From Gammaproteobacteria bacterium (GTDB lineage Bacteria > Pseudomonadota > Gammaproteobacteria > JAHELT01): 11,542 bases of DNA. The DNA lies in NCBI GenBank assembly GCA_029861595.1, contig JAOTYY010000139.1, forward strand, positions 1-11,542, read 5' to 3'. The notes under the pieces are model-generated. The model did no database searches. It had not been told where the DNA came from and was given only the letters and a program-made list of their open reading frames with translations. Both the position numbers and the translations under genes were made by a program. This document shows, one piece after another, positions 3,461 through 10,587 of the stretch (within the stretch, counting starts at the first letter, position 1; each line of letters starts with the position of its first letter).

Positions 3461-3562
3461 GGGCAGCCTCCGTTGCTGCCTGCGTGCCCGATTGGCGGCC
3501 CGCTGCCGGCGTGCTAGTCTCGCGGGCATGGCCGGATTGCACGTACGGCGGGAGGAATGACC

Positions 3563-4354
3563 ATGCGTCTCGATGCGTCTCAAGTCAGTCAATTCGAGGA
3601 CACCGGGTATCTTTTTATGCCCGATTGTTTCGATACCAGCGAAGCCGCGCTGCTCAGAAATTCCGCACAGCGTGTCTACGCGCTCGATCGGGAAGAAGTG
3701 TGGCGCGAGGATAACGGGGCGCCGCGCACCGCATTCGCAGCACACACCTACGACGAGGCATTTCGTCGCCTCGGAGCTCACCCGCGTTTGATCGAACCTG
3801 TGATGCAATTGCTGGACGGGCAGGTCTACATACATCAGTACAAAGTTAACGCGAAGGCGGCTTTCGATGGTGCCGTCTGGCAATGGCACCAGGATTACGG
3901 TACCTGGAAGCGCGACGACGCGATGCCGGAACCGCGCGCGATGAATATCGCAGTGTTCATCGATGAGGTGGCGACTTTCAACGGTCCGCTGATGTTCATT
4001 CCAGGAAGTCACCGCTCCGGTGTGTTGCCGGCCGGACACGACCTGGAAACGACCAGCTATCCCTTGTGGACTCTGGACCGGGCGACCGTGAAAGAGCTTG
4101 CCGACCGCGGGGGGATTGTGGCGCCAACCGGCGCACCTGGCAGCGTGCTGATGTTCCACAGTAATCTGGTGCATGCCAGCCCGCCGAACATCAGCCCCTG
4201 GCCGCGCACTATCGTGTACCTGAGTCTCTGCGAAGTACGCAACCACATTCGCCAGTACAAACGCCCTGAATGGATTGCACATCGCGATTTCACGCCGATC
4301 GAGCCGCTGGATGACAATTGCCTGCGTGCGCTCGCCAGTGAGCAGGCAGCCTGA
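3563..4354 (+). CDS. PhyH-family Fe(II)/2-oxoglutarate-dependent dioxygenase, ectoine-hydroxylase (EctD)-like
   Basis: The motif VWQWHQDYGTWKRDDAMPEP resembles the EctD/PhyH signature (F-x-W-H-S-D-F-E-T-W-H-x-E-D-G-M-P). An HxD ... H facial triad is present (WHQD and LVHASPPN). The ATG at 3563 has GGAGG at 7-nt spacing. The ATG at 3557 is too close to the SD. Confidence 0.7.
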   Translation: MRLDASQVSQFEDTGYLFMPDCFDTSEAALLRNSAQRVYALDREEVWREDNGAPRTAFAAHTYDEAFRRLGAHPRLIEPVMQLLDGQVYIHQYKVNAKAAFDGAVWQWHQDYGTWKRDDAMPEPRAMNIAVFIDEVATFNGPLMFIPGSHRSGVLPAGHDLETTSYPLWTLDRATVKELADRGGIVAPTGAPGSVLMFHSNLVHASPPNISPWPRTIVYLSLCEVRNHIRQYKRPEWIAHRDFTPIEPLDDNCLRALASEQAA

Positions 4355-4644: not shown

Positions 4645-4709
4645 TCGTCGCCCGCGGGTGGATTTGAACCACAGGGTTGGTACCCTATACGGAAGGCGTT
4701 AAAGACCTG
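4645..4709 (-). other. tRNA 3'-half-like fragment (T-arm GTGG-TTCAAAT-CCAC plus anticodon-arm-like hairpin AGGG-TACCAA-CCCT); no 5' acceptor strand
   Basis: The reverse complement shows a canonical T-loop, TTCAAAT. No 5' acceptor partner could be found. It lies immediately 3' of the Thr-like tRNA on the same strand. Confidence 0.3.
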
Positions 4710-4781
4710 AATGAAACACGGGATTCGAACCCACGACCCGCGAATTACGAATTCGCTGCTCTACCACTGAGCTAGTTTCAT
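4710..4781 (-). tRNA. tRNA-Thr(CGT)-like; canonical D-arm, anticodon arm and T-loop, but AU-rich acceptor stem starting A1-U72; no encoded CCA
   Basis: The manual cloverleaf on the minus strand is ATGAAAC-TA-GCTC-AGTGGTA-GAGC-A-GCGAA-TTCGTAA-TTCGC-GGGTC-GTGGG-TTCGAAT-CCCGT-GTTTCAT-T. U8, A14, G18G19, U33 and purine-37 are present. The T-stem has two G.U pairs. The core closely resembles bacterial tRNA-Thr(CGU). Confidence 0.5.
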
Positions 4782-5006
4782 GTGGTGGTTGAGATACCAC
4801 GGTAACGCTCGGTACACACCGTGCGATGGATAGCGTGAGTGCGCCAGCCGGGGCCTGGAGCCCGGTCCGTAGAGCACCGTGACGCTGTCCCAACCCTCGG
4901 TTGACAGAAACGTTTTCTGCCGTCCGGCCGATTCGCACGGAATCGACCACGAATTTTCTTTCATCCCGCAGAAACTAACACAGCCCTTCTTCCCTGCTTT
5001 GGATAT

Positions 5007-5081
5007 TGGCGAGTCAGCGGAGCATCGAACCCCGATAGACAGTGTTGGAGGCTGCTGTTCCGCCGTTTGAACCACTGACTC
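5007..5081 (-). tRNA. tRNA-Trp(CCA)-like with encoded CCA; anticodon stem weakened (G.U plus a C-A mismatch at loop closure)
   Basis: The cloverleaf is GAGTCAG-TG-GTTC-AAACGGCG-GAAC-A-GCAGC-CTCCAAC-ACTGT-CTAT-CGGGG-TTCGATG-CTCCG-CTGACTC-G-CCA. It has a perfect 7-bp acceptor, and the GTTC D-stem and CTCCAAC loop are typical of tRNA-Trp. Confidence 0.5.
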
Positions 5082-5087
5082 GCAGCT

Positions 5088-5161
5088 TGGTTCGGTGCCC
5101 AGGAATCGAGCCTGGATTTCGAGATTCAAGTCTCGCGTCCTGCCAGTTAGACGAGCACCGA
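5088..5161 (-). tRNA. tRNA-like gene with encoded CCA; perfect acceptor (TCGGTGC/GCACCGA) and T-arm (CCAGG-CTCGATT-CCTGG), but 6-nt anticodon loop (CTTGAA), 3-bp D-stem and a missing nucleotide at position 9 or 26; identity ambiguous (probable pseudo-tRNA)
   Basis: Manual fold of the minus strand. It lies 6 nt from the Trp-like tRNA. Confidence 0.4.
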
Positions 5162-5176
5162 AAGGAATATCATGCC

Positions 5177-5262
5177 TGGTGGGTCCTGAGAGAATCGAAC
5201 TCCCCTCTACGTGTTAAAGGCCCGCTGCACCGCCACTATGCCAAGAAACCGTCGTAGGACGG
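5177..5262 (-). tRNA. tRNA-like element (86 nt, class-II length) with T-arm GGGAG-TTCGATT-CTCTC and 3' AGGACCC-A-CCA, but only 5/7 acceptor pairs and no clean D/anticodon arms; probable pseudo-tRNA
   Basis: T-arm and CCA end recognised on the minus strand. The remainder could not be folded by hand. Confidence 0.25.
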
Positions 5263-5275
5263 AAATCGGAGACAC

Positions 5276-5308
5276 GTAAAAAAGGAGGACGGCGGAATAC
5301 ACCGTCCC
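5276..5308 (-). terminator. Rho-independent terminator of the DUF1127 gene (stem GGACGG/CCGTCC followed by T6 on the minus strand)
   Basis: The plus strand reads aaaaaaggaggacggcggaatacaccgtcc, which reverse-complements to a hairpin plus TTTTTT. It lies 5 nt downstream of the stop at 5313. Confidence 0.6.
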
Positions 5309-5312
5309 GGAC

Positions 5313-5561
5313 TTACGCTTGCCGATCTTCGTTGTCCGCGGCGGCGAACCTGCACGCTGCCACGTAAATCATGTCGCGTGAAACGCCGATGTCTTTCAAC
5401 ATGTGGTCGTTGAATGCGCTTAGTTGCTCCGCGGTCCGTCGCTGTAACTTCGCTATGCGCCAGGCCTGCATGGTGTTGGCGATCGCGAGCATGATGACGT
5501 TGCAGACGTTCGGTACGCTTTTCGCGAAGGTGATCCGCTGTTCCACAAGTGAGTCGATCAT
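5313..5561 (-). CDS. DUF1127-family small protein (82 aa)
   Basis: The C-terminal motif WRIAKLQRRTAEQLSAFNDHMLKDIGVSRDMI matches the DUF1127 signature (R..R..L..L.D..L.DIG..R.D). The ATG at 5561 is preceded by AGGGAG at 8-nt spacing. Its own terminator lies downstream. The longer 147-aa reading from 5756 lacks an SD. Confidence 0.7.
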   Translation of the reverse strand: MIDSLVEQRITFAKSVPNVCNVIMLAIANTMQAWRIAKLQRRTAEQLSAFNDHMLKDIGVSRDMIYVAACRFAAADNEDRQA

Positions 5562-5755
5562 TGCCGTGGCTCCCTGCCGTCGATTGAAAATCCCTCCATA
5601 TAGGAAGGTCGTTTTGCAAAGCGACTTTGGGTTTTGTCTGCCGCGTATACGACGACGTCGCGCTGTGCATTCATGGGTCAGATAAAGGAGACATTCAAGT
5701 TTTCTCTGTGGCGGTGTTCCGCAGACACACAGAGCGAAAGATGGAGGAAAGAACA

Positions 5756-5893
5756 ATGTCCCCTTTGTTGACCCAGCGCTTTCGCCTGACTAAGCTAACG
5801 AGGCTTGATGACGTAAACAGCGCGTACTGGTGTACCGGGAAGGGATTGAACCTCCGTCGCGTGGGTCTTCCACCTACCGCTCTACCGTACTGA
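5756..5893 (+). CDS. Hypothetical 45-aa ORF with perfect SD (GGAGG, 8-nt spacing), partly antisense to the Phe-like tRNA
   Basis: The ATG at 5756 is in frame with track ORF 5627..5893. A GGAGG lies at 5743-5747. There is no homology recognisable by eye. Confidence 0.2.
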   Translation: MSPLLTQRFRLTKLTRLDDVNSAYWCTGKGLNLRRVGLPPTALPY

Positions 5894-5904
5894 GCTACCG
5901 GTAC
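5828..5904 (-). tRNA. tRNA-Phe(GAA)-like with encoded CCA; perfect acceptor, D-arm and T-arm, but G33 instead of U33 and an A-C mismatch in the anticodon stem
   Basis: The cloverleaf is GTACCGG-TA-GCTC-AGTACGGTA-GAGC-G-GTAGG-TGGAAGA-CCCAC-GCGAC-GGAGG-TTCAATC-CCTTC-CCGGTAC-A-CCA. Confidence 0.45.
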
Positions 5905-6112
5905 AAGAATTCTGCGGCTGACGCGCGAATGTGCGTCGGTCGGATAATCTTGAGGGGCAGGCGTTACACTCCTGTGACGCACGGCGGCTTTCGAAGCCGG
6001 CGCAACGCATCGCGACGATGCGTACTGCCCGCCTGTATTTCTGCGCGCCGCGTGGCGCACAGATGTAAACGCGATCCACATTGTAAAAGAGCGTTTTACA
6101 ACCGGGCACAAA

Positions 6113-6145
6113 AAAGCCCCGGTTGGACGAACCTGCCGGGGCTTT
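6113..6145. terminator. Bidirectional rho-independent terminator (stem gccccgg/ccggggc, 13-nt loop; A6 upstream, TTT downstream), strongest for minus-strand transcripts; second 9-bp hairpin at 6148-6174
   Basis: The sequence is aaaaaagccccggttggacgaacctgccggggcttt. On the minus strand the hairpin is followed by TTTTTT. Confidence 0.6.
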
Positions 6146-6198
6146 AACCTGGTCTTCCGGAAGGTTCGTGTAGCACCTTCCGGGTTTAAGCGGAAGCG

Positions 6199-6387
6199 CT
6201 AGATCATGGTTTCCTCTTCGGACACCATGACGAGATATTTACCGACGTTTGTTATGCGCTGCGGATGTCGCGCACGCGCGAACACCGTGCGCCCGTTGGG
6301 CCACGTCTGTTGCCTGCGATAACTTTTCGATTGTCTGGTCGATAGAACCATGGGCGCGGAGTTTGGCACCGCGCTGTCAATAGTCAA
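6199..6387 (-). CDS. Hypothetical small basic ORF (62 aa, TTG start in track; internal ATG at 6351) immediately upstream of the strong terminator; could instead be an sRNA locus
   Basis: ORF-then-terminator arrangement. There is no SD for either start and no recognisable homology. Confidence 0.15.
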   Translation of the reverse strand: MTIDSAVPNSAPMVLSTRQSKSYRRQQTWPNGRTVFARARHPQRITNVGKYLVMVSEEETMI

Positions 6388-6579
6388 CAGTCATAGACTC
6401 TGTCTTCTTGAAATTGCGGGTTTAGTCACGCAGGTATCCTCAGCTCTGCCGATAGATGCATAGATAAGCTCGTGATATCGCGTAATAATTGCTCGGGGTA
6501 TAGATTGAAGATTGACGCAGACGTCGGAAGGGTCGACGGTATGCAACATGCGACGGCGTTTTGCGCCGGGAGAAAAACG

Positions 6580-7212
6580 ATGATGGGAATAGGCGCAAAA
6601 CTGCATTGTATTGTGGCGCTGCTGGCTGTCGGCACGGTCGGTTGTGCAACGCTGAACAAAGATGACTGTGTAAACGCCGATTGGCGCACTATCGGCTATC
6701 AGGACGGCGCGCTCGGCAAGGTCGCCGAAGTCATTGGCAACTACCGTGAGGATTGCGCCGAGCACGGCGTGAAGCCGGATCTAAATGCGTACCTGGCCGG
6801 ACGAGAGCAGGGCTTGCGGGAGTACTGTCGGGAGGCGAACGGATTTCGAATCGGTCACAGCGGTAAGATTTATCACGGTGTGTGTCCGGGAGATCTGGAG
6901 TACGCATTCAAAGTCGGCTACCGCGACGGTCGCGAAATCTACGAGCTAGCCGCTGACATCCGCAATACAGAACGCGATCTGCAGAAGAAAACACGATCGC
7001 TGGACACACTGGACGAGGAATTGTCACTCGCCGAGGCGGAATTGATCAGTGATGGCGTCGGCAGCGAGCGCCGCGCAGAGCTGCTGCTGCGGACGCGCGA
7101 ACTGGCGATCGATATCGGCACCTTACAGAACGATGTAAGGCGCATGGAATCCGACCTGTCGGTAAAGCGTGACAAACTACAGGCGCTGCGTGATTCCAGT
7201 CCCTACCTGTGA
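6580..7212 (+). CDS. Lipoprotein with three internal aromatic-x-x-G-[YH]-x-[DS]-G repeats (DUF2799-like) and C-terminal coiled-coil
   Basis: The signal peptide with lipobox is LLAVGTVGC. The repeats are DWRTIGYQDGALG, NGFRIGHSGKIYHGVC and AFKVGYRDGREIY. The C-terminus is heptad-rich (LDEELSLAEAEL...). The ATG at 6580 has GGGAG at 7-nt spacing. The track's start at 6472 adds a 36-aa leader with no SD. Confidence 0.6.
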   Translation: MMGIGAKLHCIVALLAVGTVGCATLNKDDCVNADWRTIGYQDGALGKVAEVIGNYREDCAEHGVKPDLNAYLAGREQGLREYCREANGFRIGHSGKIYHGVCPGDLEYAFKVGYRDGREIYELAADIRNTERDLQKKTRSLDTLDEELSLAEAELISDGVGSERRAELLLRTRELAIDIGTLQNDVRRMESDLSVKRDKLQALRDSSPYL

Positions 7213-7269
7213 CCTGGAGGTTATCACTGTGTAAGGTTCTGCAGTGTCGGGCGGTCTGGTCAGTTTTGC

Positions 7270-7548
7270 ATGAGCCCGGAACTGCGCAAGTATCTGCTTA
7301 TCGGAATGTTCGTATGCATGCTCGCCGCGGTGGCCTGCGAGTTGTCGAAATCGGGATTCAAGCTGACCAGCCGAAAAAAGCATATTGCGCTGTTCAAGAA
7401 CAAGGGGCAACGTGGTAAAGACTTCAGATCGGAGGTTGTGGTTCCCGGAATAGTGCTTGCGCTTGTGGTCTTGCTGGAGCAATGCGGCTACATTGGCCAG
7501 CGGCATTCGGGCTGCGCGAACGAGTGTCACGAAGAGTTTAGATTCTAA
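7270..7548 (+). CDS. Hypothetical small membrane protein (92 aa, two hydrophobic segments)
   Basis: It fills the gap between the lipoprotein and HDO genes on the same strand. There is no SD. A competing antisense ORF (7177..7632) looks non-coding. Confidence 0.2.
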   Translation: MSPELRKYLLIGMFVCMLAAVACELSKSGFKLTSRKKHIALFKNKGQRGKDFRSEVVVPGIVLALVVLLEQCGYIGQRHSGCANECHEEFRF

Positions 7549-7573
7549 TGGGCGGCAACCATGGGAATTCGCA

Positions 7574-8209
7574 ATGCAATATCTGACAACTGTTCGCAAG
7601 CGCGTCCTTGACGGCATTACCGCTACGCCCATCGTAGCCAGCGTGCTGTCTGGAGATGCCGACCCGCAGGCATATGCACGCTACTTGACCAACGTGTGGC
7701 ATTACGCGCAGCACAGTTCGACGGTGATCGGCCTGGCCGGCTCGCGGTGTGTAGCGCAGCATCCGTGTCTTGCCGAGTACCTGCTGCATCACGCCCAGGA
7801 AGAACTGGGTCACGAACGATGGGCGCTGGACGATCTCGCTGTGCTGGGAGTCACACCAGAAAGTGTGCGCGCATCCCGGCCAGTGATTTCCTGTGCCGCG
7901 ATGATCGGTTATGAATACTACGTGGCGGGCGTGGCGAACCCCGTTGGATTGTTCGGGTGGTTATATGTCCTGGAAGCCATGGGTGATGACCTGGGCGGGA
8001 TGGTAGCCAAGGCAATCGGCGGTGCGTTGCAACTGGACAGCGGATTGAAGTTTCTTGCGGGCCACGGCGAAGCGGATGTGGAACACACTCGAGATATAGT
8101 CGAGCAGATCGACAAGCACGTCGGTAACGAAGATCTGCCGGATGTGCATCACGTCGCCGATGTAGTGGCCGATCTTTATGTGCGAATGTTTCATGAACTG
8201 AGTGATTGA
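7574..8209 (+). CDS. Heme-oxygenase-like diiron oxidase/oxygenase (HDO) family protein
   Basis: Repeated E-x-x-H motifs sit on predicted helices (HAQEELGHERW, GHGEADVEHTRD), together with YVLEAMGDDL. This is typical of the HO-like fold of CADD/UndA/SznF/BesC-type enzymes. The ATG at 7574 has GGGAA at 6-nt spacing. The stop TGA overlaps the next gene's ATG (TGATG). Confidence 0.6.
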   Translation: MQYLTTVRKRVLDGITATPIVASVLSGDADPQAYARYLTNVWHYAQHSSTVIGLAGSRCVAQHPCLAEYLLHHAQEELGHERWALDDLAVLGVTPESVRASRPVISCAAMIGYEYYVAGVANPVGLFGWLYVLEAMGDDLGGMVAKAIGGALQLDSGLKFLAGHGEADVEHTRDIVEQIDKHVGNEDLPDVHHVADVVADLYVRMFHELSD

Positions 8210-9321
8210 TGCACAGCGTAAGGCGCATTGAAACGGAGTCGGGGCGGGCCAGCGTCTACGCGTTCCGTTATCGTATCTACGTCCAGGAGCTGGCAATGAC
8301 CAGCGAGGCCGATCACGAGCGCAGATGGTTGCGCGATGAATTCGATGACTATGCAACATCCTTTGCGGTTTTCGACGGTGAGGAGGTGGTCGGGTCGTTG
8401 CGTATGTTGTTTCTCGAAGATCTGCCGGATGTGACTGCGCTAGCGGACAAGTTCGAACTTGGTCCGGCAATCGAGGCGCTGGGCACCACGGCCATCGCCA
8501 CGACCAGTCGCTTCATCCTGGATTCCAGGTTACGGCATGGCAAGGTGATATTCCGTTTGATGCGTGCCGCGTTCGAGGCCGCTCGGCAACGGGGTGTGCG
8601 GCTGAACTACGGTGATTGCAGTCCGCATTTGTTGCCGTTCTACGAACATCTGGGCTACCGCCGCTACACCAAGGGTTATAACGACACCTTGTACGGTTAC
8701 AAGATCCCGATACTGATGCTGGTAGGTGATCAGGTGCAGTTCCAGGAAATGCGCTCGCCGCTTGCACGTCTCGCCATGCAAGACGAACATGACGCAGCGG
8801 CGCGCGATTGGTTTGCAGCCACCTATCCGGACTATGTTACGCTGACAAGTGCCGCGCACATCGAGGAGGGCACGTTCCTGGACCTGCTGGCTGAGCGTGT
8901 GGCGAGTGATCCGCTGCACAAAGTATCACTGTTGCAGGGATTGACGCGCGAGCAGGCGGACTCGTTTTTGTCGCAGTCGACGCTCATCGAACTGCAGGAA
9001 AACGACTACATCATTCGCGAGGGTGCGATCGACGAAACCCTTTACGTGTTGCTGCGCGGGCTTGCCGAAGTTCGTTTGCCGGGCGGGCAGGGACCGCCGC
9101 TGGCGGTGGTCGGCGAAGGCGATACGTTCGGAGAAATCGGGTTTCTGACTGCCGTGCCGCGTACCGCCGACGTGGTGGCTGTGAAATCAAGCCAGGTGCT
9201 CGTGCTGTCCAGCGAGTTTCTATCTCGATTTATCGCCAGCCAGGCCGATATCGGTGCGCGGGTACTGCTCAATCTGTCGCGGGAACTGGCTGGGCGACTG
9301 GCGGTGGCAAGCCGCCGGTAG
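8209..9321 (+). CDS. Fusion protein: LuxI/FeeM-like N-acyl (amino acid / homoserine-lactone-type) synthase domain plus C-terminal cyclic-nucleotide-binding (CAP-family) domain
   Basis: The N-terminus has RYRIYVQELA ... DEFDDYATSFAVFDGEEVVGSLRML, matching the autoinducer-synthase/GNAT-related fold. The C-terminus has the classic cNMP-binding signature GDTFGEIGFLTAVPRTADVVAV. The ATG at 8209 overlaps the HDO stop, giving translational coupling. The track's M at 8206 is TTG. Confidence 0.7.
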   Translation: MHSVRRIETESGRASVYAFRYRIYVQELAMTSEADHERRWLRDEFDDYATSFAVFDGEEVVGSLRMLFLEDLPDVTALADKFELGPAIEALGTTAIATTSRFILDSRLRHGKVIFRLMRAAFEAARQRGVRLNYGDCSPHLLPFYEHLGYRRYTKGYNDTLYGYKIPILMLVGDQVQFQEMRSPLARLAMQDEHDAAARDWFAATYPDYVTLTSAAHIEEGTFLDLLAERVASDPLHKVSLLQGLTREQADSFLSQSTLIELQENDYIIREGAIDETLYVLLRGLAEVRLPGGQGPPLAVVGEGDTFGEIGFLTAVPRTADVVAVKSSQVLVLSSEFLSRFIASQADIGARVLLNLSRELAGRLAVASRR

Positions 9322-9343
9322 CGAGGCCGGAACCGGTGCGGAA

Positions 9344-10128
9344 TCAGATGAACGTCAGCATCGCCTCGCGCTGTTCCGTCGACACGTGGAAGAATGTGCG
9401 TTGCCATTCTTTACGTTTATGTTCCAGGAAGATGTTTTTGCACTCTGTGCCCAGCGCTTGTTCGACAAGCGTGTCTTCCTCGAACGCCTCGAGTGCATGC
9501 AGCAGAGTGGGTGGCAGCGTACCGATGCCCGCGTCCTTGAGTGCTGTGCGCCCCATCTGATAGACATCGGTGTTTATCGGTTCGCCGGGATCGGCTTTGT
9601 CGCGTATGCCTTCCAGTCCTGCCGCCAGCGTAAGTGCAGCTGCAAGATACGGATTGCACGCGCTGTCCACCGCACGGTTTTCGACGCAGTAACGATTCAT
9701 CGGAAAGCGCAGCATCGCCGAGCGGTTGTTCCTGCCCCAGACCTCGAGGATCGGCGCCCAGGAAAAATCCGCCAGATCCCCTTGCGCTGTCAGGCCCTGG
9801 TAGGAATTGTAAGTGGGGCAGGTCAAGGCGGTGATAGCGCCAGCGTGCCGCAATACGCCGGCAGTGAAATGCAACGCTAGATCGGAACGCGGTACGGCGT
9901 ATTTTTCACTCAGCACACTGCCCTGGTTGGTATCCGGGGCGAACAGATTCTCGCCCGTTTCAGAATGAAATGCGCGCCGCCGCGAAAATCGTCGGCGAAC
10001 GGTTTTGGCATGAAACTGACGATAGCGCCGATCGATTGTGCTACCTGTTTCAGCATGAAGCGCAGAAAAATAAACCTGTCCGCCATGGTCAGCGCTGCGG
10101 CGTAACCGAAATCGAAACGGCGGTACAT
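9344..10128 (-). pseudogene. Glutamine synthetase (GlnA-family) catalytic-domain remnant: N-terminal ~200 aa absent, single-nucleotide frameshift near 9965
   Basis: Frame A (10128..9967) reads [50 protein letters not shown], matching the GS motif ATFMPKP-FGDNGSGMH. Frame B (from ~9966 to 9344) continues as [10 protein letters not shown] ... ALTCPTYNSYQGL ... SWAPILEVWGRNNRSAMLRFP, matching HQS..NLF and NPT.NSYKRL. An in-frame TAA lies immediately upstream of 10128. No GS N-terminal domain appears in any frame further upstream. Confidence 0.65.
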
Positions 10129-10338: not shown

Positions 10339-10587
10339 TTATCCCTTTAGCTGATCCACGCTGATATCTAGACCGGCTGCGAGCTTCTCGATCGTATCGG
10401 CCTGAGCGGGCACGCTGGAGTCCTCGAGTTGCTGAATGTCCTGCTCGGAGACTCCGGACTTTTCCGCCAGTTCGGCGATCGTCAATCCGCGATAGCTGCG
10501 CCATGCTGCGGCGATGCTCAGCCCGTCGCGGGTCTGATACTCGATAACTTCCTGTGGAAACGTTACCGTTTGATCGAAATCACCCAT
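10339..10587 (-). CDS. XRE-family (Cro/C1-type) helix-turn-helix transcriptional regulator, 82 aa
   Basis: The HTH signature is LTIAELAEKSGVSEQDIQQLE ... TIEKLAAGLDISVDQL. The ATG at 10587 is preceded by AGGAG at 8-nt spacing. Confidence 0.7.
   Translation of the reverse strand: MGDFDQTVTFPQEVIEYQTRDGLSIAAAWRSYRGLTIAELAEKSGVSEQDIQQLEDSSVPAQADTIEKLAAGLDISVDQLKG

Follow-up and report, generated by a model that had tools for sequence, protein, structure and literature searches.

Does a pair of overlapping genes from a gammaproteobacterium encode a small-molecule pathway that is switched directly by a cyclic nucleotide? The question is raised by a window of 11,542 nucleotides (contig JAOTYY010000139.1), in which an earlier note, made from the sequence alone, had read a heme-oxygenase-like diiron oxidase (HDO) followed by a fusion of an acyl-synthase-type acyltransferase to a cyclic-nucleotide-binding (cNMP-binding) domain. 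We regard the pair as a strong candidate for a small-molecule pathway under second-messenger control. In the more specific form that we propose, based on sequence comparison and on analogy with known systems, we think it about an even chance that the two genes make up a self-contained biosynthetic module under direct second-messenger control.

Both genes lie on the forward strand. The HDO gene runs from 7574 to 8209 (ATG at 7574, TGA at 8207-8209) and encodes 211 amino acids plus the stop, while the fusion gene runs from 8209 to 9321 (ATG at 8209, TAG at 9319-9321) and encodes 370 amino acids plus the stop, comprising a FeeM/LuxI-fold N-acyltransferase, a linker and a cNMP-binding domain. The junction, read directly from the sequence, is a TGATG at 8207-8211 in which the TGA of the HDO and the ATG of the fusion overlap by one base, exactly as previously described. 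The publicly available gene predictions for the source contig (ENA ERZ28013244 k141_3045587) give identical 211- and 370-amino acid products. The overlap suggests that the HDO and the fusion are translationally coupled, and such tight coupling suggests that they are produced 1:1, possibly as a complex. A promoter and terminator scan of positions 6000-9700 gave counts no better than those of shuffled sequence and was uninformative. One gene of the source contig is annotated as a 'cyclase', but it belongs to PF04199, which we take not to be a nucleotide cyclase family.

Conserved co-occurrence of the two genes had been set beforehand as a test, and it is near-obligate in both directions. In 33 of 34 independent genome loci, spanning at least eight phyla, the HDO gene sits directly upstream of the fusion gene with gene order and strand unchanged, and reciprocal look-ups agree in all four cases. 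At 32 other loci the HDO stop and the fusion start overlap by 1-16 nt (21 loci) or are separated by 2-32 nt (10 loci) or, once, by 202 nt. This recurrence, together with Pfam scores far over the curated cut-offs (given below), excludes a chance pair of open reading frames. All-against-all clustering of open reading frames within about ±8 kb at 35 loci found no conserved neighbour beyond the HDO and the fusion, the other clusters being either generic sensor proteins or shadow frames antisense to the two genes; specifically, no acyl carrier protein (ACP), acyl-CoA ligase, exporter, receptor, LuxR-type or reductase partner gene is conserved within this span. The HDO and the fusion are the sole conserved unit at these loci, across many phyla, and the pair returns with little change in uncultured members of those phyla. 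An upstream DUF2799 lipoprotein and a small membrane open reading frame, previously suggested to belong to the operon, are syntenic only in relatives of 84-89% identity and absent from 34 other loci, and we have excluded them from the module because only the HDO and the fusion are conserved across loci. Apparent HDO-GNAT-cNMP triple fusions (L011, L013, L020 and L028) turned out to be out-of-frame open stretches in GC-rich DNA.

The fusion architecture is itself widespread: homologues in more than 230 clusters at 90% identity share it, with a length of about 375 amino acids, and it is retained in distant relatives at about 30% identity. The earlier note had called this architecture unusual, which is correct in that it is unstudied, but not in the sense of rare, since it is found in hundreds of such clusters and is common in metagenomes. 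Our literature search found no paper on the pair, whether as a FeeM/LuxI domain with a cyclic-nucleotide-binding domain or as an HDO with an N-acyl amino acid synthase, and neither protein has a model in NCBIfam.

The product of 7574-8209 is, by its sequence and predicted structure, a heme-oxygenase-like dimetal oxidase with a complete predicted dimetal site. It matches Pfam PF14518 (Haem_oxygenas_2) at 65.5 bits (E 6.8e-18; curated cut-off 28.9 bits) over profile positions 2-176 of 177, and its AF2 model (pLDDT 93.9, pTM 0.89) has the all-helical heme-oxygenase-like fold. Foldseek superimposes this model on PDB 3DDE and on CADD with a TM of 0.86, with further matches to UndA, BesC, TenA and heme oxygenases, and a profile search reaches 3DDE (E 4.6e-32) and MboA (E 1.2e-6). 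On alignment to MboA, residues E77 (7802-7804), H80 (7811-7813), E134, H164, D168 and H171 correspond to the crystallographic ligands E86, H89, E143, H172, D176 and H181, and none of the six varies among 25 aligned homologues. The 211-amino acid protein thus carries the 3-His/3-carboxylate set that separates HDOs from TenA, PqqC and true heme oxygenases, and the identity first proposed for this gene is upheld. A CADD-like, self-sacrificing pABA synthase was also considered and set aside, as the structural match to CADD is accompanied by an identity of only 15-16% and by no match at the sequence level. Sden_3740 (PDB 3DDE), itself uncharacterised, is a clear homologue with the same fold and six-ligand site.

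MboA, the mangotoxin acetylenase (PDB 9YPI), is the closest characterised HDO by profile, and although its sequence similarity is distant it shares both the fold and the six-ligand dimetal site. It oxidises an N-acylated (peptidyl) amino acid at its C-terminal residue, and the C-terminal carboxylate of this substrate ligates Fe1, a mode of binding also seen in AetD, UndA, HrmI and PolF (PMC13185094). This substrate is chemically analogous to the N-acyl amino acid that we propose for the HDO described here. There are also differences. The MboA substrate-contacting residues N57 and D61 are replaced by Y44 and S48, which are invariant among the HDO homologues, and neither an ATP-grasp ligase nor a reductase like MboB, which MboA requires for multiple turnovers (PMC13185094), is conserved near the pair.

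The N-terminal part of the fusion (residues 1-182; 8209-8754) is a FeeM/LuxI-like GNAT domain. It scores 44.4-46.5 bits against the Pfam FeeM model (PF21926; curated cut-off 27) and 36.1 bits against Acetyltransf_5 (cut-off 22.4), with FeeM above both Acetyltransf_5 and Acetyltransf_1, and the FeeM model is matched by all 25 family members. Invariant residues of the domain comprise F19, R20 and Y21, D43, D46, R65, S100, R101 and F102, the D136-C137-S138-P139 motif, and R151 and R152. A fold search places FeeM as the top structural match and the domain closer to FeeM/LuxI than to short-chain acetyltransferases; a sequence-only search of the PDB with the GNAT profile did not reach FeeM (2G0B), which was reached by the fold search alone. 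The acyl-synthase type claimed for this domain is thus borne out, and the counter-case that it is only a generic GNAT fails, because the FeeM model outscores the generic models. Exosortase-associated acyltransferases and OlsB were considered, but their NCBIfam models score far under the cut-offs, and membership in either family was rejected. The fusion differs from the FeeM/NasY-type N-acyl amino acid synthases in several ways: its identity to FeeM is only 16%, FeeM and NasY have neither its conserved linker nor its cNMP-binding domain, its GDCSPH motif is invariant, and it has no ACP gene or PEP-CTERM/exosortase context.

The inter-domain linker (residues 183 to ~240; 8755-8928) is conserved, with invariant S183, W201, F202, L227, R230 and H237, and is likely to act as an allosteric relay between the two domains. 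It is followed by the cNMP-binding domain (residues ~241-370; 8929-9318), which scores 63.7 bits against Pfam cNMP_binding (PF00027; cut-off 27.5), has the expected β-barrel and C-helix, and finds its best sequence matches in PKA and PKG domains that do bind cAMP and cGMP. The phosphate-binding cassette, F307-G-E309-I-G-F-L-T-A-V-P-R318-T-A320 (9127-9168), is conserved, without variation at G308, E309, R318 or A320 among 25 homologues. It thus has both the Gly-Glu expected to contact the ribose and the Arg-Thr-Ala expected to contact the phosphate. On this evidence the domain is, as predicted from its sequence, a canonical cNMP-binding domain, and the bona fide character previously attributed to it holds, the contacting Glu and Arg both being kept; the RTA motif alone gives no preference between cAMP and cGMP. 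In the AF2 model of the whole fusion (pLDDT 82.7, pTM 0.58) the inter-domain geometry is uncertain, and confidence falls at residues 223-238, within the linker.

In our proposal, acyl-ACP or acyl-CoA would supply a fatty acyl group that the GNAT domain would attach to the amine of an amino acid, or to a similar free-carboxylate amine, giving an N-acyl amino acid, and cAMP or cGMP at the C-terminal domain would switch this activity via the conserved linker. The gating is modelled on the mycobacterial GNATs MtPat (Rv0998) and MsPat (MSMEG_5458; PDB 4AVA/4AVC), protein lysine acetyltransferases that, like the fusion, combine a cNMP-binding domain and a GNAT in one polypeptide, and in which cAMP relieves autoinhibition of the fused GNAT (PMC8556138). 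The HDO would then bind the GNAT product, whose free carboxylate would ligate Fe1 in the manner of the MboA, UndA and AetD substrates, and would use O2 to desaturate, decarboxylate or hydroxylate its head group, giving the final metabolite. Some versions in Planctomycetota lack the cNMP-binding domain (L032, 219 amino acids), so gating is not essential to the chemistry.

The proposed logic has a precedent in the N-acyl-tyrosine pathways. N-acyl amino acid synthases are coupled, often via overlapping open reading frames, to an O2-dependent head-group desaturase such as TyzC or the nitroreductase partners of NasY, with TyzA, TyzC and TyzB giving the tyrazolones of M. tuberculosis, and NasY with a nitroreductase and ThiF giving thalassotalic acids, stieleriacines and kyonggic acids (PMC12479983). 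As in those pathways, the synthase gene here abuts or overlaps that of a putative O2-dependent head-group oxidase. However, the oxidase is an HDO rather than a nitroreductase-family desaturase and the synthase is predicted to sense a cyclic nucleotide; no conserved nitroreductase or ThiF-like neighbour was found in 34 loci, where only the HDO is conserved alongside.

Further support comes from a sister HDO clade, represented by Sden_3740 and found in Shewanella, Pseudomonas and Xylella, in which an upstream gene, overlapping that of the HDO, encodes a remote FeeM-like GNAT (hhalign probability 83.5%, E 8e-6; Pfam FeeM 2e-5, sub-threshold). The operon of this clade is GNAT-HDO-DUF3419 and differs in order from the HDO-fusion pair, and its GNAT-HDO coupling represents an independent recurrence that supports an HDO and acyltransferase module. 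Distant FeeM-cNMP relatives are fused to other tailoring domains (methyltransferase, B12-radical SAM and DinB_2), a variety that fits what would be expected of a small-molecule scaffold-maker.

Several other readings of the pair deserve consideration. The order of reaction could be reversed, with the HDO oxidising a free amino acid or amine which the cNMP-gated GNAT then acylates. The HDO is the first gene in the operon, free amino acids are the usual substrates of characterised HDOs (PMC13185094, PMC13108848), and conservation of the pair is equally compatible with this order. Examples of such chemistry would be N-oxygenation as by SznF, HrmI and RohS, or fragmentation and desaturation as by BesC, and an N-hydroxy amine would lead to a hydroxamate-type lipid or chelator. 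We nevertheless regard the reversed order as unlikely, as the characterised enzyme closest by profile, MboA, takes a C-terminal residue that is N-acylated and not a free amino acid, the GNAT is of the FeeM type rather than the IucB type used for hydroxamates, and the GNAT gene precedes the HDO in the sister operon, which makes gene order uninformative about reaction order. It could also be argued that the fusion is a cNMP-regulated, MtPat-like protein acyl- or acetyltransferase acting on the HDO or on another protein, so that the module is regulatory and not biosynthetic. The mycobacterial enzymes provide the precedent of a cAMP-binding domain fused to a protein-acylating GNAT, and tight 1:1 coupling with the HDO would be fitting if the HDO were the dedicated substrate of the fusion. 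We judge this reading very improbable. In the MtPat type itself the CNB is N-terminal and the GNAT behind it is a protein lysine acetyltransferase of the Pat type, an arrangement that the fusion does not have.

It is likewise improbable that the fusion is a divergent LuxI-type synthase, making an acyl-homoserine lactone (AHL) from SAM and acyl-ACP or acyl-CoA, with the HDO modifying the acyl chain of a cNMP-gated quorum signal. The earlier note had expected matches to cNMP_binding, to the HDO clan and to either Autoind_synth or Acetyltransf_5. Matches to cNMP_binding, the HDO clan and Acetyltransf_5 were obtained; against Autoind_synth (PF00765) the fusion reaches only 14.9 bits, with a gathering score of 24. 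Among the 25 family members Autoind_synth gives weak matches in 16 (best 3e-5), and FeeM scores higher in every one. The conserved N-terminal residues of LuxI we take to be R24, F28, W34, D45, D48, R70, E101 and R104. Measured against this list, equivalents at R20, Y24, D43, D46, R65 and S100-R101 are conserved in the fusion, but those of W34 and E101 are not, their places being taken by M30/L and T98. The fusion differs in this respect from the LuxI-type AHL synthases TofI (3P2H), LasI (1RO5), BjaI (5W8C) and RpaI (6WN0), and also in its added cNMP-binding domain and in having no conserved LuxR-type partner nearby, and its top structural match is FeeM. Finally, the C-terminal domain might serve as a dimerisation or scaffold module, or bind another ligand, in which case the pathway would not be gated by cyclic nucleotides. 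Some bacterial CNB-fold domains do bind ligands other than cNMPs. We see only a slender chance of this here, given that more than 25 diverse sequences retain the whole Gly-Glu...Arg-Thr-Ala cassette, its Gly, Glu, Arg and Ala being invariant, and that the top matches are true PKA and PKG domains.

The pathway that we favour, in which a gated synthase supplies an N-acyl amino acid to the HDO, would bring together in a new way elements of kinds already known. A more far-reaching possibility, which we hold only tentatively, is that the pair is the core of an unrecognised signalling output, widespread in uncultured bacteria, in which a cAMP/cGMP-switched N-acyl synthase and a dedicated HDO with unseen HDO chemistry produce diffusible lipid signals or bioactive lipids of a new class. 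As part of that same doubtful proposal, oxidative decarboxylation or desaturation of the N-acyl amino acid might give an enamide or dehydro-amino-acid lipid, and the FeeM-cNMP superfamily, with HDO, methyltransferase or B12-radical-SAM partners, would become a family of second-messenger-gated lipid-amide synthases.

The module is compact, easily synthesised and expressed, and found in many phyla known only via metagenomes, and the hypothesis can be tested directly, as cultured Shewanella, Pseudomonas and Xylella carry a related GNAT-HDO pair. If true, this would be the first case of a cyclic nucleotide directly gating the synthesis of an N-acyl metabolite, whether lipid-amide or AHL-like, and would connect a secreted or membrane lipid to the intracellular second-messenger state with no transcriptional step in between. 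N-acyl amino acids would be a new class of substrate for the HDO superfamily, which would probably gain a new reaction as well.

The window derives from a 53.5-kb metagenome contig (ENA ERZ28013244 k141_3045587), labelled at NCBI as a Gammaproteobacteria MAG. On its forward strand the gene for a heme-oxygenase-like dimetal oxidase (HDO) runs from the ATG at 7574 to the TGA at 8207–8209 (211 codons), and that for the FeeM-cNMP fusion from the ATG at 8209 to the TAG at 9319–9321 (370 codons), the stop of the former and the start of the latter having one base in common, in the sequence TGATG. Public gene calls on the source contig give the identical two products, and because these, the open reading frames and the TGATG agree, the coordinates and junction in the earlier note are exact.

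The HDO assignment made there also holds. Gene 1 matches Pfam Haem_oxygenas_2 at 65.5 bits (cut-off 28.9), its nearest solved structure is the uncharacterised Sden_3740 (PDB 3DDE; profile E 4.6e-32) and its nearest characterised enzyme is MboA, the mangotoxin acetylenase (profile E 1.2e-6). A confident AF2 model (pLDDT 93.9), for which 25 homologues were used, superimposes on 3DDE and CADD with a TM of 0.86, and UndA and BesC were also matched. The metal ligands of MboA are His89, His172, His181, Glu86, Glu143 and Asp176 (PMC13185094); once a 25-residue tag offset of the PDB chain is corrected for, profile alignment gives E77, H80, E134, H164, D168 and H171 as their counterparts, all six invariant throughout the family alignment. 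From the Pfam match, the structural matches and this invariant ligand set, gene 1 therefore encodes a bona fide dimetal HDO, and the complete set rules out a TenA, PqqC or heme oxygenase look-alike.

Gene 2 encodes a FeeM/LuxI-fold acyltransferase joined to a canonical cNMP-binding domain, as had been proposed, with Pfam matches to FeeM (1.9e-11), Acetyltransf_5 (1.1e-8) and cNMP_binding (1.6e-17). Among 25 N-terminal domains scanned, FeeM and Acetyltransf_5 were found in every one and Autoind_synth, also anticipated in the earlier note, was weak and sub-threshold in 16. Searched against PDB sequences, a 182-residue N-terminal profile meaningfully matched only BjaI (0.003), TofI (0.037) and RpaI (0.45), all AHL synthases. 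The AF2 model of the full-length fusion has a pLDDT of 82.7 and a pTM of 0.58, with residues 223–238 of low confidence. The phosphate-binding cassette is FGEIGFLTAVPRTA, in which 25 diverse homologues all share G308, E309, R318 and A320, so that the expected cNMP-contacting Arg and Glu are present; the inter-domain linker is likewise conserved (S183, W201, F202, L227, R230, H237). The GNAT domain also carries a GDCSPH motif (window 8614–8631, residues 136–141) with an invariant Asp-Cys-Ser-Pro(-His). An invariant Cys is not known from FeeM or LuxI enzymes; this one might be the site of an acyl-enzyme intermediate.

Homologues of the fusion form more than 230 90%-identity clusters of identical architecture and length. 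A survey that took a single genome for each GTDB species recovered 34 loci, every one in a MAG, labelled Alpha-, Beta-, Gamma- and Deltaproteobacteria, Acidobacteria, Planctomycetota, Binatia, Methylomirabilia, Nitrospirales and Myxococcales, among others. The co-occurrence that the earlier note had asked about is borne out from both sides, with the HDO gene directly upstream of the fusion gene on the same strand in 33 of 34 loci, and a FeeM-cNMP gene directly after all four HDO homologues examined reciprocally on long contigs. For 32 loci the ends of both genes could be located, with start codons picked heuristically; stop and start overlap by 1–16 nt in 21 of them, lie 2–32 nt apart in ten and 202 nt apart in one. 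When every flanking ORF was clustered, no further gene proved to be conserved alongside the two. The pair is thus a conserved, self-contained module, in which near-obligate, translationally coupled pairing joins proteins of established domain identity with intact catalytic and ligand-binding motifs. The 202-nt spacer (locus L002, 9790–9991) is edged by ~19-nt perfect inverted repeats, GGAGTCTGTCGGACTTAGG and CCTAAGTCCGACAGACTCC, and looks like a MITE-type insertion. One genome (contig ena:ERZ27248692:k141_205700; L036 and L041) holds two paralogous copies of the pair ~12 kb apart; the gene after one copy encodes a 2-oxoacid_dh-type acyltransferase, and that after the other a short-chain dehydrogenase.

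The DUF2799 lipoprotein gene (6472–7212, +) and the small two-helix membrane protein ORF (7270–7548, +) directly upstream had been suggested to share the pair's operon. Both are conserved in order and at the protein level in two relatives (L048 and L049; 84–89% identity), without a match in the other 34 loci carrying the pair; co-transcription is possible in the window's lineage, but the two are not part of the module. Elsewhere in the window, 4709–5904 (-) holds a cluster of five genes for tRNAs, Thr-CGT, Trp-CCA, one at 5088–5161 given no anticodon by ARAGORN (Rfam tRNA, 47 bits), Lys-TTT and Phe-GAA, with a small YjiS-like (DUF1127) gene between the last two. At 9344–10128 (-) a glutamine-synthetase catalytic domain is broken into ORFs of 190 and 72 aa, and the 211 nt that separate it from the following gene, at 10339, contain no called N-terminal part. 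At the corresponding position L049, a close relative, carries a gene of 345 aa that reaches the end of its contig. The split probably reflects a pseudogene or a frameshift in the assembly. A PhyH-family Fe/2-oxoglutarate dioxygenase gene (3557–4354, +) is ectoine-hydroxylase-like, scores well below the equivalog cut-off (156.9 against 336.5 bits) and shows no linkage with the pair at other loci.

We propose that the GNAT domain would form an N-acyl amino acid or related amide, and that cNMP binding would switch it, much as cAMP relieves autoinhibition of the fused GNAT in MtPat and MsPat (PMC8556138). The HDO would oxidise the head group once the free carboxylate had docked on its Fe1, on the model of MboA, UndA and AetD; in MboA the C-terminal carboxylate of the substrate ligates Fe1 (PMC13185094). 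This logic resembles that of N-acyl amino acid synthases coupled, often via overlapping ORFs, to an O2-dependent head-group desaturase, as in tyrazolone TyzC and N-acyl-dehydrotyrosine NasY with its nitroreductase (PMC12479983).

Among less probable readings, the reaction order may be reversed, with oxidation preceding acylation, or the N-terminal domain may be a divergent AHL synthase. The fusion might alternatively be a protein acyltransferase, or its CNB domain might not bind cNMP, a reading to be set beside the invariant cassette.

An independent HDO–GNAT pairing, in a conserved operon of the sister HDO clade (3DDE/Sden_3740; Shewanella denitrificans, Pseudomonas, a Xylella plasmid), bears on the age of the partnership. 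In the three loci examined (L045 5453–6717, L046 5352–6735, L047 5442–6792) a 3DDE-type HDO gene is overlapped by a preceding gene for a 182–223-aa protein and followed by DUF3419, which we take to be BtaA-like, and variable genes; the GNAT-like gene thus precedes the HDO, whereas in the window the HDO precedes the fusion. The small protein has no precomputed Pfam match, and its matches to FeeM (2e-5) and Autoind_synth (0.003–0.006) are sub-threshold. A three-sequence profile nevertheless aligns with the window GNAT family over 138 columns (hhalign probability 83.5%, E 8e-6), taking in the SR motif and the GDCSPH cysteine, with the Cys, Pro and next Tyr aligned. At the sequence level this points, more weakly than for the pair itself, to a remote FeeM-like GNAT, and would indicate that the HDO/FeeM-like partnership is older than the cNMP fusion. 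Cultured bearers of 3DDE-type HDOs (Shewanella denitrificans OS217, Pseudomonas spp., Chitiniphilus, and plasmids of Xylella fastidiosa and Deefgea) provide genetically tractable hosts.

Our literature search found no paper on the pair or the fusion, NCBIfam has no model for either protein, and public annotation is generic ('iron-containing redox enzyme family protein'; 'cyclic nucleotide-binding domain-containing protein'). The pair is not categorically new, since every ingredient has known relatives (HDOs, FeeM/LuxI synthases, cAMP-gated GNATs, NAS-plus-oxidase operons). It is widespread, testable and defined with unusual clarity. With just the GNAT domain as query, a full HMMER search gave 1500 representatives at E<=0.001, 615 of them at E<=1e-10, and most of the top 150 are 360–400 aa long. 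Ten relatives of roughly 28–36% identity, compared with Pfam, all combine a FeeM-type GNAT (FeeM and/or Acetyltransf_5) with cNMP_binding, some with a further fused domain, namely a class I methyltransferase (P0294), a B12-binding radical SAM domain (P0370) or a second cNMP domain (P0302); two closer members (P0049, P0055) add a C-terminal DinB_2. A Planctomycetota locus (L032) keeps the HDO and has no cNMP domain, and a Desulfarculales fusion (L033, 32% identical) is without an HDO. Because distant relatives keep the core and differ in tailoring domains, the FeeM-cNMP core is old, and the tailoring enzymes that it pairs with are diverse. Within this family the HDO-coupled clade forms a single, clearly delimited branch. 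The extra fused domains suggest that cNMP-sensing acyl-amide synthases make up a broad superfamily whose tailoring partners can be exchanged.
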